The notes under the pieces are model-generated. The model did no database searches. It saw only the letters and a program-made list of their open reading frames with translations, and was not told where the DNA came from. From positions 1 to 35,441 of the forward strand of contig CAXCDZ010000002.1 of assembly GCA_963981525.1 (NCBI GenBank): DNA of 35,441 nucleotides. Direction: 5' to 3'. Shown in pieces: positions 2,133-29,027 of the stretch. The stretch's first letter is position 1; each line of letters opens with the position of its first letter. This stretch comes from an uncultured bacterium. GTDB lineage: Bacteria > Patescibacteriota > Microgenomatia > UBA1400 > UBA12108. The translations under genes were made by a program, and so were the position numbers.

Positions 2133-4259
2133 TTAGCGGCGAGGAGGTCGACTGCCGTTATCACGAAGCTCAGTGAGAGAGACCATTGAGAGGTCGATCC
2201 TGCCCTGATCATCAACTCCTTTGACGTAGACTTTGACTTTTTCGCCAACTTTGACGAGTGCCGAGGCGTCCTGGACGAATTCTTTGCTCATCCTGGAGAC
2301 GTGGACTAGTCCCTGTTTGCCGCCCATGATCTCGACGAAACAACCGTAGTTCTCGACTCTAACGACTGTGCCTTCGTGCTCTTCTCCCGCTTCGGGGACG
2401 TGAACGATGCCTTTGATGGTTCGGACTGCTTTGTCGATTGATTCTTGATCAGGTGAGCTGACGTTAACAACGCCTACTCCAGTGTCATCACTGATGTCGA
2501 TCTGAGCGCCCGTGTCGGCCATGATGGCTTTGATGATTTTGCCACCTGGTCCGATGACTCCACCGATCATATCCATGGGAATCTCGAACTGCTCGATCTT
2601 GGGAGCGTATTTGGAGAGAGTAGCACGTGGTGTGTCGATTGCAGCTACCATCACGTCCATGATCTCGAGCCTGGCTACCTTGGCTTGGGCGAGTGCTCGC
2701 TCAAGAACGTCGAAGGTGATACCTGCTACCTTGATGTCCATCTGAAGCGCGGTGATACCATCTCTGGTTCCTGCGACCTTGAAGTCCATGTCACCGATGT
2801 GATCTTCGATCCCTTTGATGTCGGTAAGCACAACGTGCTTATCACCATCAGTCATGAGACCCATCGCAATACCTGCAACTGGCTTCTTGAGAGGAACTCC
2901 TGCGGACATAAGTGAGAGAGTAGAACCACAGACTGAGGCCTGCGAGGTACTACCATTACTACTCATGACCTCGGAAACGACCTGGATCGTGTAAGGGAAG
3001 TCAGCTTGAGAAGGCAACATTGGGAAGAGCGCACGCTCAGCGAGTGCTCCGTGTCCAATCTCACGACGACCGGGGAATCCGTAACGTCCTGGGTCACCGT
3101 ATGAGTAAGGAGGTGCATTGTAGTGATGGATGTAGTGCTTGTTTTCTTCGCTTTCCATACTCTCGATGATCTGGCCGAGTGCGGGAGATCCGAGTGTAGT
3201 GACTGAGAGAACCTGAGTCTCACCCCTCTGGAACATGGCAGAGCCATGAGTGCGAGGGAGAAGATCTACTTCGGCTGTGAGCTCACGAATCTTAGTGAGT
3301 TCGCGTCCGTCTAATCTAACCTCATCTGTGATAGTCATTTTGCGAGCAAGCTTGGTAAAGACGTCGTTAACAACCTTTTCGATCTCACTGTTAGTGAGTG
3401 CGCCTTCTACTGGTTCTGCATCATCTGCGGGGAACTGAGCTACTGCGATCTCGTGGATATCTTTTTTGTCGAAACCATCTTGGCCGAGAGCCTTTTTGAG
3501 AAGAGGTTCGACTGCTTTCTCGACTTCTGCAACTTTTGCTGCGTCGAGCTCAGCTGGCAATGGAAACTCAGCTTTTTTTGAACCAACTTCTTTGACGAGA
3601 TCATTGATCACGCCAACTAACTTCTTGACTTCAGCTTGAGCTTGTTTCATGCCTTCGAGGGTCTCTTCTTCTGTTGCCTCATTGGCACCGGCCTCGACCA
3701 TGACGACTCCATTGTCGCTGGCAGAGACGATAAGATCGAGCTTGCTACTCTCACGCTCCTCGTATGTGGGGTTGACCATGTATTTGCCATCAACTAAGCC
3801 CATGCGCACTGCTGCGATTGGACCTGCCCAAGGGATGTCAGAGATGCTTAGTGCGGCTGAGACTCCAACGAGAGCTGGCATGTCTGCGTCGTTTGCACCA
3901 TCTGCTGAGAGAACGGTAGCAACTACCTGGATGTCTCTTTTGACGTGAGTTGGGAATAGAGGTCTGATGGAGCGATCGATGATCCTGCCTTTGAGGATGG
4001 CCTCATCTCGAGGACGACCATCGCGTTTGACCCAGCGGCTACCTTTGATCTTGCCGCCAGCATATAGCTTTTCGGCGAACTCGACGGAGAGCGGGAAGTA
4101 AGGGAGGTGGGTGTCACGATCTGCCATACAGGCGGTGACGTGAACAACAGTCTCGCCATAAGTGACGAGGACAGCTGCGTTAGTAAGAGAGGCGAACTTA
4201 CCTGTTTCGAGGGTAAGATCTTTACCACCTAATTGGGTGGTGACTTTTGTTGATTTCAT
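2133..4259 (-). CDS. pnp: Polyribonucleotide nucleotidyltransferase (PNPase)
   Basis: 708 aa. Two RNase PH-like halves (RIDGR-type LDGRELTKIR, GSAMFQRGETQ) followed by KH (GGVIGPGGKIIKAI) and S1 (GTVVRVENYGCFVEI) domains. Sits in the conserved rpsO-pnp arrangement. Confidence 0.97.
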   Translation of the reverse strand: MKSTKVTTQLGGKDLTLETGKFASLTNAAVLVTYGETVVHVTACMADRDTHLPYFPLSVEFAEKLYAGGKIKGSRWVKRDGRPRDEAILKGRIIDRSIRPLFPTHVKRDIQVVATVLSADGANDADMPALVGVSAALSISDIPWAGPIAAVRMGLVDGKYMVNPTYEERESSKLDLIVSASDNGVVMVEAGANEATEEETLEGMKQAQAEVKKLVGVINDLVKEVGSKKAEFPLPAELDAAKVAEVEKAVEPLLKKALGQDGFDKKDIHEIAVAQFPADDAEPVEGALTNSEIEKVVNDVFTKLARKMTITDEVRLDGRELTKIRELTAEVDLLPRTHGSAMFQRGETQVLSVTTLGSPALGQIIESMESEENKHYIHHYNAPPYSYGDPGRYGFPGRREIGHGALAERALFPMLPSQADFPYTIQVVSEVMSSNGSTSQASVCGSTLSLMSAGVPLKKPVAGIAMGLMTDGDKHVVLTDIKGIEDHIGDMDFKVAGTRDGITALQMDIKVAGITFDVLERALAQAKVARLEIMDVMVAAIDTPRATLSKYAPKIEQFEIPMDMIGGVIGPGGKIIKAIMADTGAQIDISDDTGVGVVNVSSPDQESIDKAVRTIKGIVHVPEAGEEHEGTVVRVENYGCFVEIMGGKQGLVHVSRMSKEFVQDASALVKVGEKVKVYVKGVDDQGRIDLSMVSLTELRDNGSRPPRR

Positions 4260-4590: not shown

Positions 4591-5475
4591 TTATTTGGAA
4601 GGAGTGCTGCCCTTGAAGATTTTGGGTTTGAGCCAGTCAGGCTGCCCCACTTCGCTCTTAGGAGCTTCGCTGGGGGTCTTTGCTTCGCTTCGAGGTGCGG
4701 GAATGGGCTCGACGATGGGCATGTTGTTGACAACTTTGGCGACAGGTTGGACCGGAGCAGGAGCTGAGCGTCTGGCACCGGTGCGATAGAGAACGGCGAG
4801 AGCCTCGAAGGTGTCTGCGGTCATCTTGGGACTCGCGAGTCCATTTGTGGCTTCTTCGATACCCTGCATGAGGTTGCTGGCGATATCCTGATCAAGTGGG
4901 AGCTTGAGCTCCTGGAGAACGGCGGTGATTAACTCACTATTACTGCTACCTGCGTCAGTGAGGTTGATGGCGCCAAATGTGCCGGCAATGTTACTGAGGT
5001 TAACCAGCTTATCTTTGACAAACAATTCGTGCTCTTTTTCTGCAATAGGGCCGAGTTTGGCTAGATTTTCGGCGCCAATGACGATAATTAGATCAGCAGA
5101 GGCTCCTGATGTGCCAAAAATGATGTCGTTTTTGGTGATGGGAGCGGCATTTGCCTGGGGAGCAAGAACTAGATTGAGATGACCGCCCTCGACGTTGCTC
5201 GTGACTTTGTCAACTGCGTTCTCGGGTAAGTTAACGGTGATGACCAGGTTGTTACCACCAACACTAGAGGTGATTTTGTCTAGACCGACTAGATGAGAGT
5301 CTCTGACTACAGGCTGGGAGCTAGATATGATAGAGGCTTGCTTGCCAGCTTTGACCAGTGAAAGATAGAGTGCGAGACCGGAAGCTACGACGTCTTTTGT
5401 AGCCTCAAGAGGAAGGGCAACGAGAATAGTTTTGGCTTCGGTTATTTTTTGTGCTAAATTCTTGATGTCACTCAT
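4591..5475 (-). CDS. Hypothetical protein: degenerate DHH-family (NrnA-like) fold with catalytic motifs lost, plus a Pro/Ala-rich tail
   Basis: 294 aa. The layout resembles an NrnA N-domain: KTILVALPLEATKDVVASGLALYLSLVKAGK in place of H-x-PDGDxxGS, DLIIVIGAE in place of motif II, VNLSNIAG in place of DHH, and ASNLMQGIEEATNGL in place of GIxTDTGxF. No DHHA1 GGGH motif. The position between infB and rpsO matches where accessory translation/RNA genes sit in Firmicutes-like operons. Confidence 0.45.
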   Translation of the reverse strand: MSDIKNLAQKITEAKTILVALPLEATKDVVASGLALYLSLVKAGKQASIISSSQPVVRDSHLVGLDKITSSVGGNNLVITVNLPENAVDKVTSNVEGGHLNLVLAPQANAAPITKNDIIFGTSGASADLIIVIGAENLAKLGPIAEKEHELFVKDKLVNLSNIAGTFGAINLTDAGSSNSELITAVLQELKLPLDQDIASNLMQGIEEATNGLASPKMTADTFEALAVLYRTGARRSAPAPVQPVAKVVNNMPIVEPIPAPRSEAKTPSEAPKSEVGQPDWLKPKIFKGSTPSK

Positions 5476-5510: not shown

Positions 5511-7001
5511 TTAATCGACTGATTCTGATTTCTTATAGGCTATAATAACAGCTTTCTCTGTGATGTCAAGCTTGGGAGAGAGGATGATTCCGCATTCGTT
5601 CCCTGCCTTGATCTCGTGGATCTTTTCTTTGCCGGTTCTAATTGACTTGATCCGAGCGTTTTTGAGCTCTTTACTCCCCTTTTTCTTGAGGTGGACTGTG
5701 TCTCCAACCGTGAGCTTGCCTGACTCAACTGTGCAGCCTGCGACTATAGACTCATTGATTTGGAAAATTTTGAGCACTTTTGCCTGTCCTAGCTCTTCTT
5801 CGTCGATCGTGGGCTCGAGGATGCGCAGCACTCTTTTCTCAAGATACTCGAGAAGTTCATAGATGACCTGATAGGTCTTGACGATTACTCCGTCAGTTTC
5901 TGCGATGTTTTTTGTATGACTGCTGACTTTGATAGCAAAACCGAGAATGATGGCGCCAGTAGAAGTCGCAAGATGAATATCTGCATCGGTAATGCTGCCA
6001 GTACCAGAGGAGATAAGATTGATCTCAGGAGTAAGGCTGGATTTGATTGCTTCGAGAGAGCCTAGGGAGTCTGATTTGAGGATCAGATTAAGGCGATCAG
6101 TGGGTTCAGCGGGTGAATCCAACAGGGACTCTCCTCCCGCCTCTGGCGTCCCAACTTGGCTTTCTGCCAGGTCTCCTGTCGAGGAGAGTCCCTGGGCGTC
6201 GGATACAATGTGTGGGCCGGTGGTGACGACCTCACCAACATGAGGGAGAGAGTTAAAACCAAGAATCTGAGCTGGTTGACCTGGGGTGACCTGTTTGAGC
6301 GAGAGTCCAGAGGGGGAAATAAGAGCGCGGACTTTGCCACTAGCTGAAGAAGTGCTAATCTCGTCGCCGACCTTGAGAGTCCCTTCCTTGACTACGACCG
6401 ATACTTTGACTCCCCTTTTCATGTCTTTTTGGGCTTCGATGATAGGGGCAGTGAGGACGGCGTCTCTCAGATCTTTTAGCTCCTCTAGTTCGGCAATCAG
6501 GATAATCTGCTCAAGAAGTGAGTCAACTCCCTTGCCTTCTTTGGCTGAGATCTCGACAACTGGAGTGTTGCCGCCGTATCCTTCGACAAAAACCTGGAGT
6601 TCGGTGAGTTCGGCTTTGGCCTTATCTGCGGTGACGTGAGGACGATCCATCTTGTTGATGGCAACGAGGAAGGGGATTTTGGCATCAGTAAGATGTTTGA
6701 CGGATTCTTTGGTCTGGGGTTTGACTCCGTCGTCGGCGGCGACGATCAGGATAGCTAGATCAGCGACGGCAGCACCGCGGGAGCGCATCTCACTAAAAGC
6801 TGCGTGACCAGGAGTATCGATAAATGTGATTGCCTTACCCTGATATTCTGCCTGATATGCACCGATGCCCTGGGTAATACCACCGACTTCGCCGGCTTGG
6901 ACGTGCGCATCGCGAATGTAGTCTAGGAGAGTAGTTTTGCCGTGATCAACGTGACCAAGAATAGCTACGACGGGAGGTCTGCCGATATTACTTTTTGCCA
7001 C
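5511..7001 (-). CDS. infB: Translation initiation factor IF-2, minimal form that starts almost at the G domain
   Basis: G domain motifs AILGHVDHGKTT, DTPGH and NKMD, followed by the IF2 domain II/C1/C2 pattern. The longest ORF starts at ATG 7127 but would overlap nusA by 140 nt. The GTG at 6999-7001, preceded by GAGGAAAAAGAGC, overlaps nusA by only 14 nt and is chosen here. The choice of start is uncertain. Confidence 0.85.
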   Translation of the reverse strand: MAKSNIGRPPVVAILGHVDHGKTTLLDYIRDAHVQAGEVGGITQGIGAYQAEYQGKAITFIDTPGHAAFSEMRSRGAAVADLAILIVAADDGVKPQTKESVKHLTDAKIPFLVAINKMDRPHVTADKAKAELTELQVFVEGYGGNTPVVEISAKEGKGVDSLLEQIILIAELEELKDLRDAVLTAPIIEAQKDMKRGVKVSVVVKEGTLKVGDEISTSSASGKVRALISPSGLSLKQVTPGQPAQILGFNSLPHVGEVVTTGPHIVSDAQGLSSTGDLAESQVGTPEAGGESLLDSPAEPTDRLNLILKSDSLGSLEAIKSSLTPEINLISSGTGSITDADIHLATSTGAIILGFAIKVSSHTKNIAETDGVIVKTYQVIYELLEYLEKRVLRILEPTIDEEELGQAKVLKIFQINESIVAGCTVESGKLTVGDTVHLKKKGSKELKNARIKSIRTGKEKIHEIKAGNECGIILSPKLDITEKAVIIAYKKSESVD

Positions 7002-10766: not shown

Positions 10767-10830
10767 AAAAAAAGAGCCATTTCTGGCTCGTGGTCCGCGT
10801 GTTTTGTGATGATGGTTTGCCTAGGTTCAT
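10753..10830 (-). CDS. Candidate 25-aa small ORF (MNLGKPSSQNTRTTSQKWLFFYARN) with a strong SD
   Basis: AGGAG lies 7 nt upstream of ATG (cat 10828-10830). A good promoter lies about 15 nt further upstream. This is the only part of track ORF 10753..11013 that does not overlap the HAD gene. Confidence 0.3.
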   Translation of the reverse strand: MNLGKPSSQNTRTTSQKWLFFYARN

Positions 10831-10880: not shown

Positions 10881-10902
10881 CGAGAAGATTGGTGTTGTTG
10901 GT

Positions 10903-10928
10903 GTTACTATGTTTCGAAACATGGTAAC
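10903..10928. repeat. 26-nt near-perfect palindrome GTTACTATGTTTCGAAACATGGTAAC, copy 1
   Basis: Identical to 12589-12614. The two arms are 12 nt each with one T/G mismatch and centre on TTCGAA. Lies 22 nt upstream of the -35 of the small-ORF promoter and 9 nt after the HAD stop. Confidence 0.85.
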
Positions 10929-10936
10929 AAAAAGGG

Positions 10937-11794
10937 TTAGTTAATAAATTGTTGCAAGATTTTGATAATTCCATTCTCATCAACTGAGTTGCCGACAATA
11001 TAATTGCCTTCACTCTTAGACTTAACTAGATCTTGGAGTTCTTGCTTGGCGTTGCCCATGGCACCAGCGTAGCCACATAACTCGATGAACTGCCAATCAC
11101 TAGGACTATCTCCGACTCCCAAATAATCTGACATGGGAATGTTGAGAGAACTAGCAATACTAATTGCAGCTTCTTTTTTGCTAATACCGTGTGCCGTAAC
11201 GATCCCGAATTGGAGAGGTAGGATTACTGGGTGGACTCCCCAACTGGTTTTGACGAGGTCGTCAAACTGAGACATGATACTAACCACTCTCTCCTTATCC
11301 TTTTCGTTGAGTGCGATGGGCATGATTTTGGTGATCTTTTGCTTCCCAGCCTCCACAACCAAATCATCCACTATGACGGGATCTTGCTGGAGAACGTGAC
11401 GATGGCCTGGAGTAATACCGTCTGCGACTTGACTCTCTTGAATGTAGTAGTTGTCTACTGTGTAGAACTCGGTATAAACATTTTCCTCTAATAACTTCTT
11501 GATAACCTGAGTGGCCGAGTCGAAATCTAGATTATATTCTGCAACAACTTTACCTGCAATTGGATCAATAATAACCCCTCCTCCATCTGTGATGTGGAGA
11601 TTGTCGAGACCAGCGTCCTCGATAATCTTATCTATCGAGAAGTGTGGCTTGGCTGTGCAGAGAGTGATGGGAATACCGAGAGACTTGACTCGCTTGAGCT
11701 CGGCAATTACGTCAGGGTGAGGCCATGGAGAGTTGTAATCTATCTTCTCTCCAACAATAACTCCGTCGACGTCGAGAATTATTCCTTTGATCAT
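10937..11794 (-). CDS. HAD-superfamily hydrolase, Cof/subfamily IIB-like
   Basis: Motif I DVDGV near the N-terminus (MIKGIILDVDGVIVGE), motif II TLCTAKP, and a C-terminal GVGDSPSDWQF...GNA motif pattern. Its ATGA start/stop overlaps the upstream HAD gene. Confidence 0.8.
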   Translation of the reverse strand: MIKGIILDVDGVIVGEKIDYNSPWPHPDVIAELKRVKSLGIPITLCTAKPHFSIDKIIEDAGLDNLHITDGGGVIIDPIAGKVVAEYNLDFDSATQVIKKLLEENVYTEFYTVDNYYIQESQVADGITPGHRHVLQQDPVIVDDLVVEAGKQKITKIMPIALNEKDKERVVSIMSQFDDLVKTSWGVHPVILPLQFGIVTAHGISKKEAAISIASSLNIPMSDYLGVGDSPSDWQFIELCGYAGAMGNAKQELQDLVKSKSEGNYIVGNSVDENGIIKILQQFIN

Positions 11795-12561: not shown

Positions 12562-12588
12562 GTGGAGAATTATAACAGGCAAGATGTT

Positions 12589-12614
12589 GTTACTATGTTT
12601 CGAAACATGGTAAC
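12589..12614. promoter_or_regulatory. 26-nt palindrome copy 2, overlapping the -35 region of the HAD operon promoter (candidate operator)
   Basis: Same 26-mer as 10903-10928. TATAAT (minus strand, 12574-12569) lies 14 nt from the palindrome and 7 nt before the HAD ATG. Confidence 0.55.
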
Positions 12615-12656: not shown

Positions 12657-12690
12657 TAATAATATAATGATTCGAATCATTATATTATTA
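12657..12690. repeat. Perfect 34-nt AT-rich palindrome TAATAATATAATGATTCGAATCATTATATTATTA
   Basis: Self-complementary over its whole length. The centre ATGATTCGAATCAT resembles the centre ATGTTTCGAAACAT of the 26-nt palindrome. Lies 14 nt after the HIT stop codon, and no U-tract follows. Confidence 0.8.
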
Positions 12691-12703: not shown

Positions 12704-13168
12704 TTATGAGAGGGATTGGCGGAGGCGAGTGGCGTAATCCAGGCGATCTGCTGGATCAGAGAGAATTTTGCTTCCAGCATGAACATTGAAGTCATCCCCC
12801 TCAAATCTTGGAAACACATGAAAGTGATAGTGAAAGGCATGTTGATCCCCTGCTGGCTCATTGTTCTGGAGGGTGGTGATGCCGTCACAGCTGTAGACCT
12901 CTTTCATGGCGAGAGCTACCTTTTTGGCAAGTTGTGTGATGTGTCCTGCTAGCTCGTCGGGGAGGTCGTAGATATTCTCATAATGTTTGTTAGGAACTAT
13001 GATTACGTGACCTGGATTGTTTTTGCGTCGGAATGAGTTGATGAAAGCACTAACTTGCTTGTCTTGATATACGAGGTCTTGCTGGAGAAGGAGTGTGTGT
13101 TTATTCTCGACCCCTTCTACTCCTAGGCAGATTGGACAGATGTATTCAGAGGGAGTGTGGTTGTGCAT
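12704..13168 (-). CDS. HIT-family (histidine triad) nucleotide hydrolase/transferase
   Basis: HAFHYHFHVFPR contains the HxHxHxx triad. Also has GHVIIVPNKH and an N-terminal CPIC motif. 154 aa. Confidence 0.85.
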   Translation of the reverse strand: MHNHTPSEYICPICLGVEGVENKHTLLLQQDLVYQDKQVSAFINSFRRKNNPGHVIIVPNKHYENIYDLPDELAGHITQLAKKVALAMKEVYSCDGITTLQNNEPAGDQHAFHYHFHVFPRFEGDDFNVHAGSKILSDPADRLDYATRLRQSLS

Positions 13169-15180: not shown

Positions 15181-15244
15181 ATTTATTTTCTCCTTATTAG
15201 AGTAATTTTTAATTTGTATAAATAATTTTTATATTAATACCAAT

Positions 15245-15307
15245 AGGGTCTGACCCTTTTGGGCTGCTTTTCATGTCTTTGACTTGAGTCCTTTAGGGTC
15301 AGACCCT
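15245..15307 (+). repeat. Palindromic repeat element, copy A (AGGGTCTGACCCT...AGGGTCAGACCCT)
   Basis: Shares CAATAGGGTCTGACC...TTTTGGGCTGCTTTTC...GAGTCCTTTA(A)GGTCAGACCCTTT with copy C (26410-26471). Has 13-nt terminal inverted repeats. Overlaps the last ~12 codons and the stop codon of grpE. Confidence 0.85.
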
Positions 15308-15765
15308 TTGGAAGAGCCGCTACCAATGACGACGGAGGCTGTGCGGAGGACACGATCATGGAGTTTGTATCCCGTGCGAGTGGTGGCGATGATTTGACCT
15401 TGTTTGCCAGCCACGAGCTCGGAGCACTCCATGCAGGTGGGATCGAAGTCTCCTGATGTGTCGACTTTTACTACCCCCTCTTCCTGGATAATCTTGTCAA
15501 GCTGGGCCAAGAGCATTGAGATCCCCTGGTCGTTGAGACTCTGATCTGAGAGATCAAGGTTGTCACGAAGATCAAGGAGCTTGGTGATGAGATTGGCGGT
15601 TGCGAACTTGATTACGTGTGAGGAGTCGCGCTGGAAACGTTTTTCGAGATTGGCGTAGTCGGCCACTGCGCGAGCGAGTTTGGCCTCTAGAGCCTGGATC
15701 ATAGGATCAGGTGAGTTAGTATCTTTGGCCGGGGTTGGGGTTGGTTTGTGATCTTTTTTTGTCAT
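15271..15765 (-). CDS. grpE: Nucleotide exchange factor GrpE (compact, 164 aa)
   Basis: Coiled-coil N-terminal part (ALEAKLARAVADYANLEKRFQRD) and a C-terminal beta domain (GYKLHDRVLRTASVVIG). Located between hrcA and dnaK. The last residues SSKGSDPKGLKSKT and the TGA stop come from repeat copy A. Confidence 0.9.
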   Translation of the reverse strand: MTKKDHKPTPTPAKDTNSPDPMIQALEAKLARAVADYANLEKRFQRDSSHVIKFATANLITKLLDLRDNLDLSDQSLNDQGISMLLAQLDKIIQEEGVVKVDTSGDFDPTCMECSELVAGKQGQIIATTRTGYKLHDRVLRTASVVIGSGSSKGSDPKGLKSKT

Positions 15766-18443: not shown

Positions 18444-18473
18444 GTCTGTTAGAGTTTGTCCTTTTTAGCCAAT

Positions 18474-18546
18474 AAGGACTCTCCTTTCACCTGCTGGTGA
18501 GCCCTTCTTGATTTGCAATCAGGAATTCCTGTTAAGGAGAGTCCTT
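18474..18546 (+). repeat. Palindromic repeat element, divergent copy F (AAGGACTCTCCTT...AAGGAGAGTCCTT)
   Basis: Has the same flanks as the family (CAATAAGG... and ...CCTTTG) and the same 13-nt terminal inverted-repeat architecture. The interior differs and contains two small hairpins (CACC-TGCT-GGTG and TGATT-TGC-AATCA). Lies between the murJ stop and the lepA start. Confidence 0.65.
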
Positions 18547-18550
18547 TGTA

Positions 18551-20203: not shown

Positions 20204-20224
20204 AGCAATAAGTGTACTACAAGA

Positions 20225-20280
20225 TCTGTCCTTTTGGGGCTGCTTTTCGGGCTTGAAGCCTCGAGTCCTTTAAGGACAGA
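20225..20280 (+). repeat. Palindromic repeat element, copy B (TCTGTCCTT...AAGGACAGA)
   Basis: The interior TTTTGGGGCTGCTTTTCGGGCTTGAAGCCTCGAGTCCTTT is nearly identical to copies C and D. The terminal stems changed in a compensatory way. Lies in the divergent murJ/rpsT intergenic region. Confidence 0.85.
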
Positions 20281-20315
20281 CCTTCTGACGGCTTACAGAA
20301 CACAACCATTGGTAG

Positions 20316-26387: not shown

Positions 26388-26409
26388 AGAAAGTCTTTAA
26401 TTCCCAATA

Positions 26410-26471
26410 GGGTCTGACCTTTTTGGGCTGCTTTTCGGGCTTGAAGCCTCGAGTCCTTTAAGGTCAGACCC
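26410..26471 (+). repeat. Palindromic repeat element, copy C (GGGTCTGACCTT...AAGGTCAGACCC)
   Basis: Lies between convergent stop codons (26387 on plus, 26481 on minus). The interior TTTGGGCTGCTTTTCGGGCTTGAAGCCTCGAGTCCTTT is shared with copies B and D. Confidence 0.9.
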
Positions 26472-26480
26472 TTTAGTCCC

Positions 26481-29027
26481 CTATTTCCAGGATGGGAAGA
26501 GGGAGAAAGCTGTGTCCCAGTAAGCTTGTGGCATGGGAAAACCATAATAAAATGGAGAGATCAGCAAGAAGACGATAAGCGCGAGAGTAATGATGATGAG
26601 GCGCGTGCGAGATGAGAGAGTCCCAAGCCAAGAAGCAAGAATGATCATAAGAAAAGTAGCAGACGGAAGATAGTGATAGAAAAACATGATACGGGGAGAG
26701 AAGATCCAGGGGATCGTTAGTATTGCGTATAGAGTATAGAGTATGAAGTATGGGAACTTTTTGATTTTGGGCAGCTGCAAGATGAGAGCAACAAGGCCTA
26801 GCCACAACAAGATAGGATTGGACTGGGAGTAGATGTTGCTGATTTTGTCGCCGTACTCCACAAAATACCAAACTGGACGTAAGGAGAAGATCCACTGCCA
26901 AGGCAGTGACTGATAAGCGTGCGTGGCAACTAGGTTGGTGTGGTAGTACCACATCTGACGATGGAGCTCAAAAAACTGAGCCCAAGTGTAACCAGAAAGG
27001 AAAAATGGTGAGTAAGAAAGAAGATAGATACAAAGCGAAATTAAGACCAAGCGAATAGAAAGCAGTAAGTTACGAACACTCGCTAAAGCAAGGTTCGTAA
27101 CTTTGATATCTCTCAAATAGATGAGGGCGAGAGGGAGAACTCCGTAGAGTGCGGACCATTTGGAGGCGAGGGCGAGTCCGTAAAGTATGGCGCTTTTTTT
27201 CCAGCTCTTTGTGAGTGCGTAGTTGAGTGACCAGATAAAAAAGGTGAGCATGTAGATGTCGTTCATTCCGATTCTGCTTTGGACCAGATGCAGACCTTCG
27301 ATCGTGAGGAGGAATGCAGCGAGTGCGGCGGTAGAGCGCGAACGAAAGAGTGAGAGAGTGAGCCGATAAACTCCGTAAATACTCACTACTCCAAGAATGG
27401 CAGAGAAGAATCTCCAGGCGAAGGCAGTATCTCCAAAAGTTGCGAGTCCGAGAACCATGCCGTACTTGGCAACAGGAGGATGCGTCCACTCGTAGGCAAA
27501 ACCTTCTGGTGGAGTAGCCCACCAGATCCATGCTTCGAGATTATTGGAGAGTATTTCTTGGGCAGTAAAAGCATGGTAGACCTCGTCGAAGATGTGTTGC
27601 GGGGGACTACCGAGATTAACTAAGCGGAGGAAGAGTGCGAATATGAGAATCGAGGTGAGGAGTCTGTTTTTCTTAATCCAGGCTAAAAACTCTTTAATAG
27701 CTTTGGGCCAGTCCCAGAAAACTGCGAGGGAGAGAGTCGTGAGAGTAGTCGCGACAGAGGCGAGATTACCCCAGACAATATGCATAGGCCAGGTCTGATC
27801 GTGTAGTACCCAAGAATATGCGGCCCAGAGATTGAATGAAAAGAGAGTAGTGAGGAGCATGTAAGGAACAATCAGCCAAGAAGAGGTGAGAGTCGCGAGT
27901 GCGAGGAAAGGGAGTGCGAAAAGGAGGTGTCTTTCGTGCATCCGGGTAGTAAAGGTGAAAAAGGCTGCAAGGATAGTGCCGATAACTCTCGGGGCGTGGG
28001 AGCGATCCCATCCAGTGCGCGCCCAGAGCCTGAGAGTGTTAAGGGAGAGTAAGGAGAAGAAGAGTTGCCCCCATGACTGGAGAGTGAGGCCCAAAACCAA
28101 GTGATTATCAGGGGGCCATGAGGAGAGTGGAGAGCGAATATTCCAGAGATTAAAGGCGTTAATAGAGGTGTAGGGATAGGTACTTGCCTGCTCGAGAGTC
28201 TTGTCTAAAAGGAAGCGAAAAGCACCAAATGGAGTGGAGTTAACAAAGAGTGCGGGGAGGAGAAAAAGTAGTATGGCGTATAGCGTATAGAGTATTAAGT
28301 ATGGGAACTTGGGACGATGAGGGGACTTGATTAATATAATTGCGAAAACTGGGAGGGTGAGAATGACAATGGGTTTGAAGGCAACGGCGAGAGAGAGAAG
28401 AAGTGTGGCGTATAGCGTATGGCGTATAGCGTATGGGAAACGAAGAGATCTAAGAAAGTAAATGAGAGAAATAACTGCTAGTAGTGCTGGTAAGGAATCT
28501 GTCTGGCCCCACCAGGAGGTGTCACCGATAAAAGCTGGAGAGAGAATGAGGAGGGAGACTAAAAGATCGGACCTTTTTAGGCGGCTTTTCGGGCTTGAAG
28601 CCTCGAGTCCTTTAAGGTCCGACCTTCTTGCGATCGAATGTATCACTGCAATTAGACCGAGCTCGATAAGAGTGAAGAATGATTTGAAGACAATTGAGAA
28701 AGAGAGGGAGAAATAGGAAGAAAGATGGGAAATGAGTGCAAAAAGATAAACTGGGAGAGGAAGATAGTCACACCAAGTTGAGGCAAAAAACTCGGTCGGG
28801 CCAAGCTCCAGAATAAGTCTGCCCCATGCTGAGTAGGTGCCGATATCGTAGGGCTGGGCGGGTAAGGTGATAGCAAAAACTCGGATAGCGATGGCAATGA
28901 TGAGGACAATATATCCAAGATACTGCAAGGTCGGACCTTTTTGGGCTGCTTTTCGCGTCTTGCGACTCGAGTCCTTTAAGGTCCGACCTTGAGTCCGACC
29001 TTTAGAGATTTTTTGCCACATGGTCAT
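26481..29027 (-). CDS. Two-module GT-C membrane glycosyltransferase: N-terminal COG5542/Gpi18-like module fused to a C-terminal GT39 (PMT-type) module
   Basis: 848 aa and polytopic. The C-terminal half starts with the typical PMT N-terminus (LIFALFLRLVNLGSPPQHIFDEVYHAFTAQE) and ends with the PMT C-terminal pattern (YHTNLVATHAYQSLPWQWIFSLRPVWYF). The N-terminal half has YDIGTYSAWGRLIL...WCDYLPLPVYLF and YPYTSINAFNLW, as in ArnT/PIG-V-like GT-C proteins. The start is uncertain, because the first ~35 codons are repeat copy E. Confidence 0.75.
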   Translation of the reverse strand: MTMWQKISKGRTQGRTLKDSSRKTRKAAQKGPTLQYLGYIVLIIAIAIRVFAITLPAQPYDIGTYSAWGRLILELGPTEFFASTWCDYLPLPVYLFALISHLSSYFSLSFSIVFKSFFTLIELGLIAVIHSIARRSDLKGLEASSPKSRLKRSDLLVSLLILSPAFIGDTSWWGQTDSLPALLAVISLIYFLRSLRFPYAIRHTLYATLLLSLAVAFKPIVILTLPVFAIILIKSPHRPKFPYLILYTLYAILLFLLPALFVNSTPFGAFRFLLDKTLEQASTYPYTSINAFNLWNIRSPLSSWPPDNHLVLGLTLQSWGQLFFSLLSLNTLRLWARTGWDRSHAPRVIGTILAAFFTFTTRMHERHLLFALPFLALATLTSSWLIVPYMLLTTLFSFNLWAAYSWVLHDQTWPMHIVWGNLASVATTLTTLSLAVFWDWPKAIKEFLAWIKKNRLLTSILIFALFLRLVNLGSPPQHIFDEVYHAFTAQEILSNNLEAWIWWATPPEGFAYEWTHPPVAKYGMVLGLATFGDTAFAWRFFSAILGVVSIYGVYRLTLSLFRSRSTAALAAFLLTIEGLHLVQSRIGMNDIYMLTFFIWSLNYALTKSWKKSAILYGLALASKWSALYGVLPLALIYLRDIKVTNLALASVRNLLLSIRLVLISLCIYLLSYSPFFLSGYTWAQFFELHRQMWYYHTNLVATHAYQSLPWQWIFSLRPVWYFVEYGDKISNIYSQSNPILLWLGLVALILQLPKIKKFPYFILYTLYAILTIPWIFSPRIMFFYHYLPSATFLMIILASWLGTLSSRTRLIIITLALIVFLLISPFYYGFPMPQAYWDTAFSLFPSWK
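26718..26759. repeat. 42-nt intragenic repeat, copy X (encodes KFPYFILYTLYAIL)
   Basis: 39/42 identical to 28269-28310. The flanking sequence is unrelated at the nucleotide level. Confidence 0.85.
28269..28310. repeat. 42-nt intragenic repeat, copy Y (encodes KFPYLILYTLYAIL)
   Basis: 39/42 identical to 26718-26759. A related degenerate copy lies at 28403-28440 and contains a perfect 14-nt tandem duplication, GGCGTATAGCGTAT x2 (28407-28434). Confidence 0.85.
28567..28622 (+). repeat. Palindromic repeat element, copy D, inside the GT-C coding sequence
   Basis: TCGGACCTT...TTTTCGGGCTTGAAGCCTCGAGTCCTTT AAGGTCCGA. Translated in-frame on the minus strand as RRSDLKGLEASSPKSRLKRSDL. Confidence 0.9.
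28927..29005 (+). repeat. Palindromic repeat element, copy E, plus a 15-nt partial duplication at the LCP/GT-C junction
   Basis: AAGGTCGGACCTT...AAGGTCCGACCTT (28927-28990) is followed by GAGTCCGACCTTTAG. The inner hairpin differs from the other copies (GTC-TTGC-GAC instead of GGCT-TGA-AGCC). Read on the minus strand as GRTQGRTLKDSSRKTRKAAQKGPT in the long GT-C ORF. Confidence 0.85.

Follow-up and report, generated by a model that had tools for sequence, protein, structure and literature searches.

How does a palindromic repeat come to be read as part of a membrane protein? The question is raised by positions 1 to 35,441 of contig CAXCDZ010000002.1 (assembly GCA_963981525.1), which stems from an uncultured bacterium of the UBA1400 lineage of Microgenomates; this whole stretch of 35,441 nt is called the window throughout. 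On its minus strand, a gene for a membrane glycosyltransferase of the GT-C type (26481-29027) contains, at 28567-28622, a copy of a repeat that recurs elsewhere in the window. An earlier note, made from the letters alone, had described this copy as an in-frame insertion that behaves like the Rickettsia palindromic elements (RPEs). Our analysis arrives at the same reading: with a probability of roughly 0.8, the segment, which is copy D of a repeat family named F1, goes back to a short interspersed repeat, non-autonomous and hairpin-forming, that was inserted here and resembles RPEs in its behavior.

Copies D and E in the GT-C gene

F1 is an imperfect palindrome of 72-73 nt with the termini CCAATAGGGTCTGACC...GGTCAGACCCTTTGG and, across copies, the consensus CCAATAGGGTCTGACCTTTTTGGGCTGCTTTTCGGGCTTGAAGCCTCGAGTCCTTTAAGGTCAGACCCTTTGG. 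Five copies (A-E) are found in the window, all of them in plus-strand orientation. According to the alignment of all copies, the interval 28567-28622 is the core of copy D, whose full extent is 28558-28630. The host gene has an open reading frame (ORF) of 848 amino acids with a likely ATG start at 29021, and its product is composed of two modules, a PimE/ALG6-like one at the N-terminus and a PMT/PMT_2/PMT_4TMC one at the C-terminus. Copy D lies in frame on the minus strand, where it corresponds to residues 134-156 (RRSDLKGLEASSPKSRLKRSDLL) and is read as RRSDLKGLEASSPKSRLKRSDL at residues 134-155. Copy E (28922-28994) occupies residues about 10-34 of the same protein and is translated in a different frame, as GRTQGRTLKDSSRKTRKAAQKGPT at residues 10-33. 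Both points agree with the earlier note, which had seen D read through without a break of the 848-codon ORF, as is borne out by the alignment of the downstream residues, and E read in another frame, as is confirmed by translation. Its description of the encoded peptides as basic and hydrophilic held as well.

Next to copy E, a partial duplication of the arm of the element (GTCCGACCTT) forms a 12-nt tandem at about 28993-29004, which amounts to four in-frame codons (GRTQ) and results in GRTQGRT.

The homologues of the GT-C protein are 780-810 amino acids long and belong to Microgenomates/Woesebacteria-type bacteria of the candidate phyla radiation (CPR). Alignment with about 58 of them reveals both inserts, that of D being the clean insertion which the earlier note had predicted. 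Copy D coincides with a gap in all homologues except P0004 and accounts for a net gain of 18 amino acids, the window protein reading ...HSIARRSDLKGLEASSPKSRLKRSDLLVSLLILSPA where P0002 reads ...TRLTKS, then a gap, then KLLPFLLLLSPA. Copy E coincides with a gap in all of the about 58 homologues, with a net gain of 22 amino acids over the closest insert-free relative (P0002/L122); here, MWQKISKG[RTQGRTLKDSSRKTRKAAQKGPT]LQYLGY of the window protein faces MWRAISKAKSFKYLL of the homologue. This places copy E behind the conserved N-terminal MWQKISK and ahead of the first transmembrane helix.

P0004, the single homologue with an insert at the D site, is 67% identical to the window protein and shows RRSDPKGLEASSPKSSPKGSDLL at this position. 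Among the 120 GT-C homologues listed, only the window protein and P0004 have the motif GLEASS. The contig encoding P0004, L121, carries the F1 nucleotide repeat at the same codon as copy D. A homologue that has the peptide and lacks the nucleotide repeat, which the earlier note had named as the finding to speak against an insertion, was thus not encountered, since the DNA of P0004 has the repeat. At NCBI, P0004 is labeled 'Thermoprotei archaeon'; the TIM-LCP-GT-C synteny of L121 and the identity of 67% to the window protein point to a Microgenomates bacterium, and the contig was probably mis-binned.

These data also bear on a technical explanation, namely that the insert is an artefact of sequencing or assembly, created by a chimeric join at the repeat. 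All sequences concerned are metagenome assemblies, in which repeats can misjoin contigs. However, colinear, in-frame and conserved GT-C sequence is found on both flanks, the same insertion site recurs in the independent Joint Genome Institute (JGI) contig L121, which represents another organism, and further copies are present in four independent JGI assemblies. An artefact is therefore scarcely to be believed.

On the far side of copy D the frame remains intact: about 690 downstream residues align with the homologues and have a predicted local distance difference test value (pLDDT) above 90. On the near side, the ATG of the GT-C gene overlaps the upstream gene of the LCP (LytR-CpsA-Psr) family by 20 nt in the window, in L121 and in L122, and the motif MW.KI preceding copy E is also kept among the homologues. 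The overlap in three loci and the kept motif together speak for a start of the GT-C gene upstream of copy E.

An AlphaFold2 model of the GT-C protein, built with an 80-sequence alignment, has a mean pLDDT of 91 and a predicted template modeling score (pTM) of 0.89. Low confidence is restricted to two segments, residues 1-30 (pLDDT 51-55), which include E, and residues 136-150 (57-74, and below 50 at 141-143), which include D. In the homologues, the long helix 110-135 is separated from the helix 146-161 by no more than a tight K/R-rich turn, which is the D site; the residues inserted there are probably disordered. A PDB fold search with the model returned the GT-C fold (Pmt4, Pmt1/2, ALG6, PimE, ArnT) and was uninformative on the D loop.

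The earlier note had placed the insert in a cytoplasmic loop. Its position in a loop stands, by the alignment and the low pLDDT, while the cytoplasmic side is what we infer from a topology drawn on the AlphaFold helices. This topology is consistent in parity and puts all K/R-rich loops inside (197-200, 235-240, 338-341, 437-454) and the polar conserved motifs outside (D61, WGQxD 173-177, TYPYT...WPPD 283-315, TRMHER 360-366). It ends inside ahead of the PMT module, as required. Combined with the K/R counts and the positive-inside rule, it makes a cytoplasmic D loop a reasonable assumption, and the D turn of the modeled protein is probably cytoplasmic.

The insert might alternatively be an intervening sequence of intron-like or intein-like character that is removed from the mRNA or from the protein. 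Its compact, stable hairpin and its well-defined ends would suit this explanation, and insertions in rRNA genes are a known trait of CPR bacteria. However, 72 nt is far below the size of a group I or group II intron or of an intein, and Rfam gave no intron match. Furthermore, the intragenic copies are either stop-free multiples of three or, in the case of grpE, provide the stop, which would be needless if they were excised. We regard excision of this kind as very improbable.

Another repeat of the GT-C gene is 55 nt long, rich in GCGTATAG units and present three times, at 26702-26756, 28253-28307, and 28385-28439. The three copies encode FPYFILYTLYAIL, FPYLILYTLYAIL, and FPYAIRHTLYATL, each at the start of a transmembrane helix. 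The family consensus (PY.....LY) is shared by the C-terminal copy alone, and there is no other homologue with all three. This triple repeat looks like the result of intragenic conversion or like another in-frame repeat.

Further copies, a second family and a third palindrome

The remaining three F1 copies of the window map to a gene end and to two spacers. Copy A (15240-15311) overlaps the 3' end of grpE (15271-15765, minus strand), whose C-terminal tail it rewrites by providing the last 12 codons, KGSDPKGLKSKT, and the stop. Copy B (20216-20288) is located between the divergent genes murJ (minus strand) and rpsT (plus strand), and copy C (26404-26476) between the stop codons of a DUF11 gene (26387) and of the GT-C gene (26481). 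The earlier note had counted three stop-free frames among the six of copy C; there are exactly three, of which the plus strand has one and the minus strand two.

A second palindromic family, F2, is about 80 nt long and has the termini CCAAYARGGACTCTCC...GGAGAGTCCYTNGG (the right end also written GGAGAGTCC). It is represented in the window by two copies, both on the plus strand. The copy of subtype a (18470-18550) is intergenic between lepA and murJ, while the copy of subtype b (F2b, 6119-6198) lies inside infB (5511-7001, minus strand), the gene of IF-2 (product P0121, 496 amino acids). It falls into the linker of domains II and III, which is hypervariable, and is translated there as AQGLSSTGDLAESQVGTPEAGGESLL; all six frames of this copy are open. 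Hence, four of the seven F1 and F2 copies of the window overlap genes. The conserved segments of 78-81 nt had also been considered for a tRNA origin; no tRNA was found, and the segments constitute family F2.

Against their own profile hidden Markov model, the five F1 copies score at E = 1e-19 to 2e-23, and nhmmer gave E = 1e-19 to 1e-30 for the five F1 and two F2 copies in the 35 kb. A loose pattern scan of the genome contigs (17 specified bases, variable gap) returned at least 120 loci, and the 120 listed are all chance hits by nhmmer. The strong profile scores, and the lack of any such match at the 120 random genome loci, argue that the five F1 copies did not arise by chance.

In L122 and L128, the closest relatives with syntenic DNA, none of the sites of copies A, C, D, E, and F2b is occupied. 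At the site of copy C, the flanking genes of L122 abut, and the GrpE protein of L128 ends in ...GNGEK and the stop, with no element. Altogether, the about 34 kb of syntenic DNA in these two relatives contain zero copies, as opposed to seven in the 35-kb window.

A specific metagenome scan identified five loci only. L123, L124, L125, and L127 represent a single locus in overlapping variants from different strains, and this locus shares nothing with the window in nucleotides besides the F1/F2 copies, these being 83-94% identical. The Wzy-like protein (Wzy_C) encoded on L125 and L123 comprises three in-frame copies. In a flippase-like protein (Polysacc_synt) of the same locus, the C-terminal tail is encoded by F1 (SGSDLTGLEAPSSKSSPKRSDPKGLL and the stop), and a TraG-like ATPase of L125 has an F2 copy in its C-terminal tail. 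The RPE-like in-frame behavior that the earlier note had seen in the GT-C gene therefore extends to grpE and infB of the window and to three genes on unrelated contigs.

The gene of this ATPase (L125, 10372-13143, minus strand) encodes a TraG/VirB4-like protein and is split by an intein with a LAGLIDADG domain.

Over 8.7 kb, L123 and L125 have an identity of 98.4%, yet where the Wzy-like gene of L123 has an F1 copy (5043-5115), that of L125 has an F2 copy (3642-3722) at this very codon. The sole divergent tract between the two contigs comprises about 320 nt and has its border within the first about 9 nt of the element; this tract has probably recombined.

Another reading is that of a protein-level module: selection would have favored a short linear motif, for instance SDLKGLEASSPKSSPKRSD, and duplicated it between proteins, the likeness of the DNA being secondary. 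One dominant frame among the intragenic F1 copies (copy D, its ortholog in L121, the grpE tail, the flippase tail, and the Wzy-like gene of L123) is what such a module would produce. However, copy E uses a second frame of the same DNA, the same DNA occurs in non-coding spacers (copies B, C, and L125b), and F2b is found in two different frames in different proteins. Moreover, the variation among copies tracks base pairing and not codons, and no family with the motif was found among 1.84 billion protein cluster representatives. Selection for a peptide motif as the origin of the repeats is hardly credible in view of these points.

A third palindrome, near-perfect and 37 nt long, has the form CACRCCCGGTGTG-AAGGGTGCCCA-CACACCGGGYGTG and encodes TPGVKGAHTPGV; we refer to it as the TPGV palindrome. 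Its copies in the GT-C gene of L130 (10450-10486) and in the infB linker of L131, a Candidatus Collierbacteria genome (about 10789-10825), are identical at 35 of 37 positions. The peptide TPGVKGAHTPGV is present in seven GT-C and four IF-2 homologues. As this palindrome is found across GT-C and IF-2 genes, in-frame palindromes are recurrent in Microgenomates.

Palindromes of another kind were observed elsewhere in the window. A perfect palindrome of 28-30 nt, TGTTACTATGTTTCGAAACATGGTAACA, has two copies (10899-10930 and 12585-12614), just upstream of the minus-strand genes for a HIT protein (12704-13168) and a HAD hydrolase (10937-11794), and the second copy further borders on the start of the other HAD gene. 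These palindromes look like operators. A separate perfect palindrome of 34 nt is located at 12657-12690.

Hairpin folding, strand orientation and mobility

Every F1 copy folds into one long hairpin, whose minimum free energy ranges from -27 to -41 kcal/mol and whose z-score from -2.9 to -7.4 (copy D, -28 to -31 kcal/mol and -2.9 to -4.4; copy E, -7.4). The plus strand folds more stably than the minus strand because of G-U pairs. The outer stem occurs in the variants TCTGAC/GTCAGA, TCGGAC/GTCCGA, and TCTGTC/GACAGA. Compensatory changes were observed in five of the 17 consensus pairs of F1; none of the 12 pairs of the outer stem is broken in any copy, and two pairs of the inner stem are broken in one copy each. 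In F2, eight of 26 pairs reveal compensatory changes, the internal hairpin included.

Such conservation could mean that the host keeps the hairpins as functional RNA or DNA modules, be it for stabilization or processing of mRNA, as weak terminators or as protein-binding palindromes, and that the intragenic copies are a by-product. The maintenance of pairing through compensatory changes, which extends to the internal stems, would fit this assumption, and so would the better folding of the plus strand with its G-U pairs, the location of four copies in short intergenic spacers by gene ends, and the fact that the D copy shared with L121 is better conserved than its flanks. However, no Rfam family was retrieved at gathering and E-value thresholds, the best matches being far below the gathering scores. 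The U-tract of an intrinsic terminator does not follow the stem on either strand. The syntenic relatives manage without copies at these junctions of genes, one site can hold either F1 or F2, and copies are found mid-coding in essential genes, where a terminator or a cleavage site would be harmful. A function kept by the host is thus unlikely to be what maintains these hairpins.

The orientation of the elements is uniform. All 14 F1/F2 copies of the window, L121, L123, and L125, four of them intergenic, have the same strand on the G-rich strand. GC skew is positive across the whole window (1-35441) irrespective of gene direction, and on L125 (1-13246) it amounts to +0.19 to +0.28 with no flip across rnpA-yidC-jag / dnaA-dnaN. 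This is the G/C strand disparity that was reported for UBA1400 Microgenomates on the scale of the chromosome and tentatively put down to unidirectional replication (PMC7143001). The uniform orientation ties the elements to this unexplained disparity of the whole chromosome. Since all copies keep one strand on the G-rich strand, even across the dnaA region, their orientation could mark the direction of replication independently.

For copy D, we propose the following course of events. F1 and its sister family F2 would have multiplied within one narrow clade of Microgenomates (CPR), and because these genomes are gene-dense, many copies would land in genes. The intragenic copies that survive would be those with a length of a multiple of three bases, a stop-free frame and a permissive segment as target, i.e., an N-terminal tail, a short K/R-rich turn, probably cytoplasmic, between transmembrane helices, a C-terminal tail or an interdomain linker. 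In the GT-C enzyme, D would add about 18-22 basic residues after helix 110-135 and E about 22 before the first transmembrane helix, leaving the enzyme otherwise intact. From the presence or absence of copies between relatives, the high identity of copies on unrelated contigs and the F1/F2 difference between near-identical strains, we infer selfish DNA that is, or once was, mobile and whose peptides are presumably neutral passengers.

Several observations weigh against the insertion of a mobile repeat as outlined here. Neither a transposase nor a RAYT (REP-associated tyrosine transposase) nor any other mobility gene was detected in the 35-kb window or the other loci examined; the window is a housekeeping region (pnp, infB, nusA, dnaJ, dnaK, grpE, hrcA, lepA, murJ, rpsT, pilNO, tpiA, uvrD, femAB). 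Five pairs of filled and empty sites gave no consistent target-site duplication, with the ends and flanks being ambiguous at E, nor did the sequence beside the copies, the flanking 4-5 nt included, yield a conserved target motif. The copies resemble each other by 77-93%, which is no mark of a very recent burst. F1 and F2 are very rare in public data, with five metagenome loci. A phmmer search with the 35-amino-acid D segment against the 1.84 billion protein cluster representatives returned a single match, P0241, a repetitive protein that is unrelated; cluster representatives free of the insert probably conceal the proteins that carry it. The D copies of the window and of L121 are about 93% identical in their core, as compared with 68% for the flanking gene. 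An extra assumption is needed here, be it constraint on the element, gene conversion between copies or separate insertions at a hot spot. Finally, the GT-C protein may start at an alternative internal TTG after copy E, and the inserted peptides are predicted translations of the DNA.

Two wider searches yielded no matches. A joint F1 peptide profile (48 columns, two frames) gave none at E<=10 in a database of 5.8 billion proteins, which is no evidence of absence, as each half of the profile likely holds too little information. Scans of viral contigs for F1 and F2 gave none either.

As to the route of mobilization, the conserved pairing, the lack of duplications and the uniform orientation make a single-strand route a reasonable guess. 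A strand-specific mobilization via a hairpin of single-stranded DNA is thus a tentative suggestion, to which we give somewhat less than an even chance, and a classical route by terminal inverted repeats and a transposase may have been taken instead. In a wider proposal, F1, F2, and the TPGV palindrome would form an undescribed class of strand-specific mobile elements of Microgenomates that use single-strand hairpins, are inserted or exchanged like cassettes only into the permanent lagging-strand template, and contribute significantly to the lineage-specific insertions of CPR proteins. A permanent lagging-strand template would follow from replication in one direction, if this is real, as was proposed from the strand disparity. 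We consider this wider proposal doubtful as a whole.

Palindromes that code for protein have so far counted as a special trait of Rickettsia, apart from isolated examples in a small number of other bacteria. In Microgenomates, another lineage of tiny, gene-dense genomes, at least three unrelated element families show in-frame behavior. This suggests that high coding density generally leads to selfish hairpin repeats surviving in frame. The elements offer a concrete source for many unexplained lineage-specific insertions in CPR proteins: they lengthen proteins, can confuse alignments and domain boundaries, and can rewrite termini, as exemplified by grpE.

Comparison with known systems

RPEs are palindromic repeats of about 150 bp in ten families, and nearly half of their copies are in frame in unrelated genes, at positions predicted to be compatible with the fold (PMC10969869). 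The families RPE-1 to RPE-10 go back to Ogata et al. 2000 and 2002, in the form in which these are summarized in PMC10969869. F1 and F2 share with them the interspersed palindromes in a small, gene-dense genome, several families per genome, and intergenic copies next to an unusually high number of copies in frame within unrelated housekeeping genes. F1 also has the predicted long hairpin. A further likeness is the insertion where the fold would tolerate it, as suggested by low pLDDT and by positions in a hypervariable linker or in terminal tails. To our knowledge, RPEs have no associated transposase either. In contrast, F1 and F2 measure 72-81 nt, and the TPGV palindrome 37 nt, as compared with roughly 100-150 bp for RPEs, and their hosts are Microgenomates of the CPR, an unrelated phylum. 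The likeness is one of behavior only, and kinship in sequence is not expected. We know of no description of a uniform orientation relative to the G-rich strand for RPEs. F1 and F2 cannot be filed under any of the RPE families.

In-frame fusions with host ORFs are also on record for the enterobacterial repetitive intergenic consensus (ERIC), the QMITEs of Coxiella and the MITEs (miniature transposable elements with inverted repeats) of Anabaena (PMC10969869, PMC5896051). Like MITEs, F1 and F2 are small, occur in multiple copies, possess terminal inverted repeats and lack a transposase ORF. They differ from MITEs in being one continuous hairpin with conserved internal stems. The filled and empty sites compared gave no consistent target-site duplication, with ambiguous ends and flanks at E, and a parent insertion sequence (IS) with F1 or F2 ends was not found in the 35-kb window or the other loci examined.

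Repetitive extragenic palindromic sequences (REPs) are 20-40 nt long, extragenic and marked by a GTAG or CGTC tag (PMC3733652). F1 and F2, with 72-81 nt, a start in CCAAT, no tag and a frequently intragenic location, fall outside this definition and differ likewise from the bacterial interspersed mosaic elements (BIMEs); the TPGV palindrome has the size of a REP (37 nt), yet is intragenic. With REPs and BIMEs, which involve RAYT, and with the IS200/IS605 family, our elements have in common the hairpin as the conserved feature, no target duplication is evident, and their uniform orientation would fit a single-strand mobilization coupled to replication. No conserved target of 4-5 nt is seen beside the copies, and no Y1 transposase gene in the sequence examined.

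A full-text literature search gave no link of CPR or Patescibacteria with MITEs, REPs or protein-coding palindromes, in a limited library that is no proof of novelty. Taken together, the comparison with these systems leads to several apparently new families of the RPE-like kind, in a lineage where such elements were apparently undescribed.

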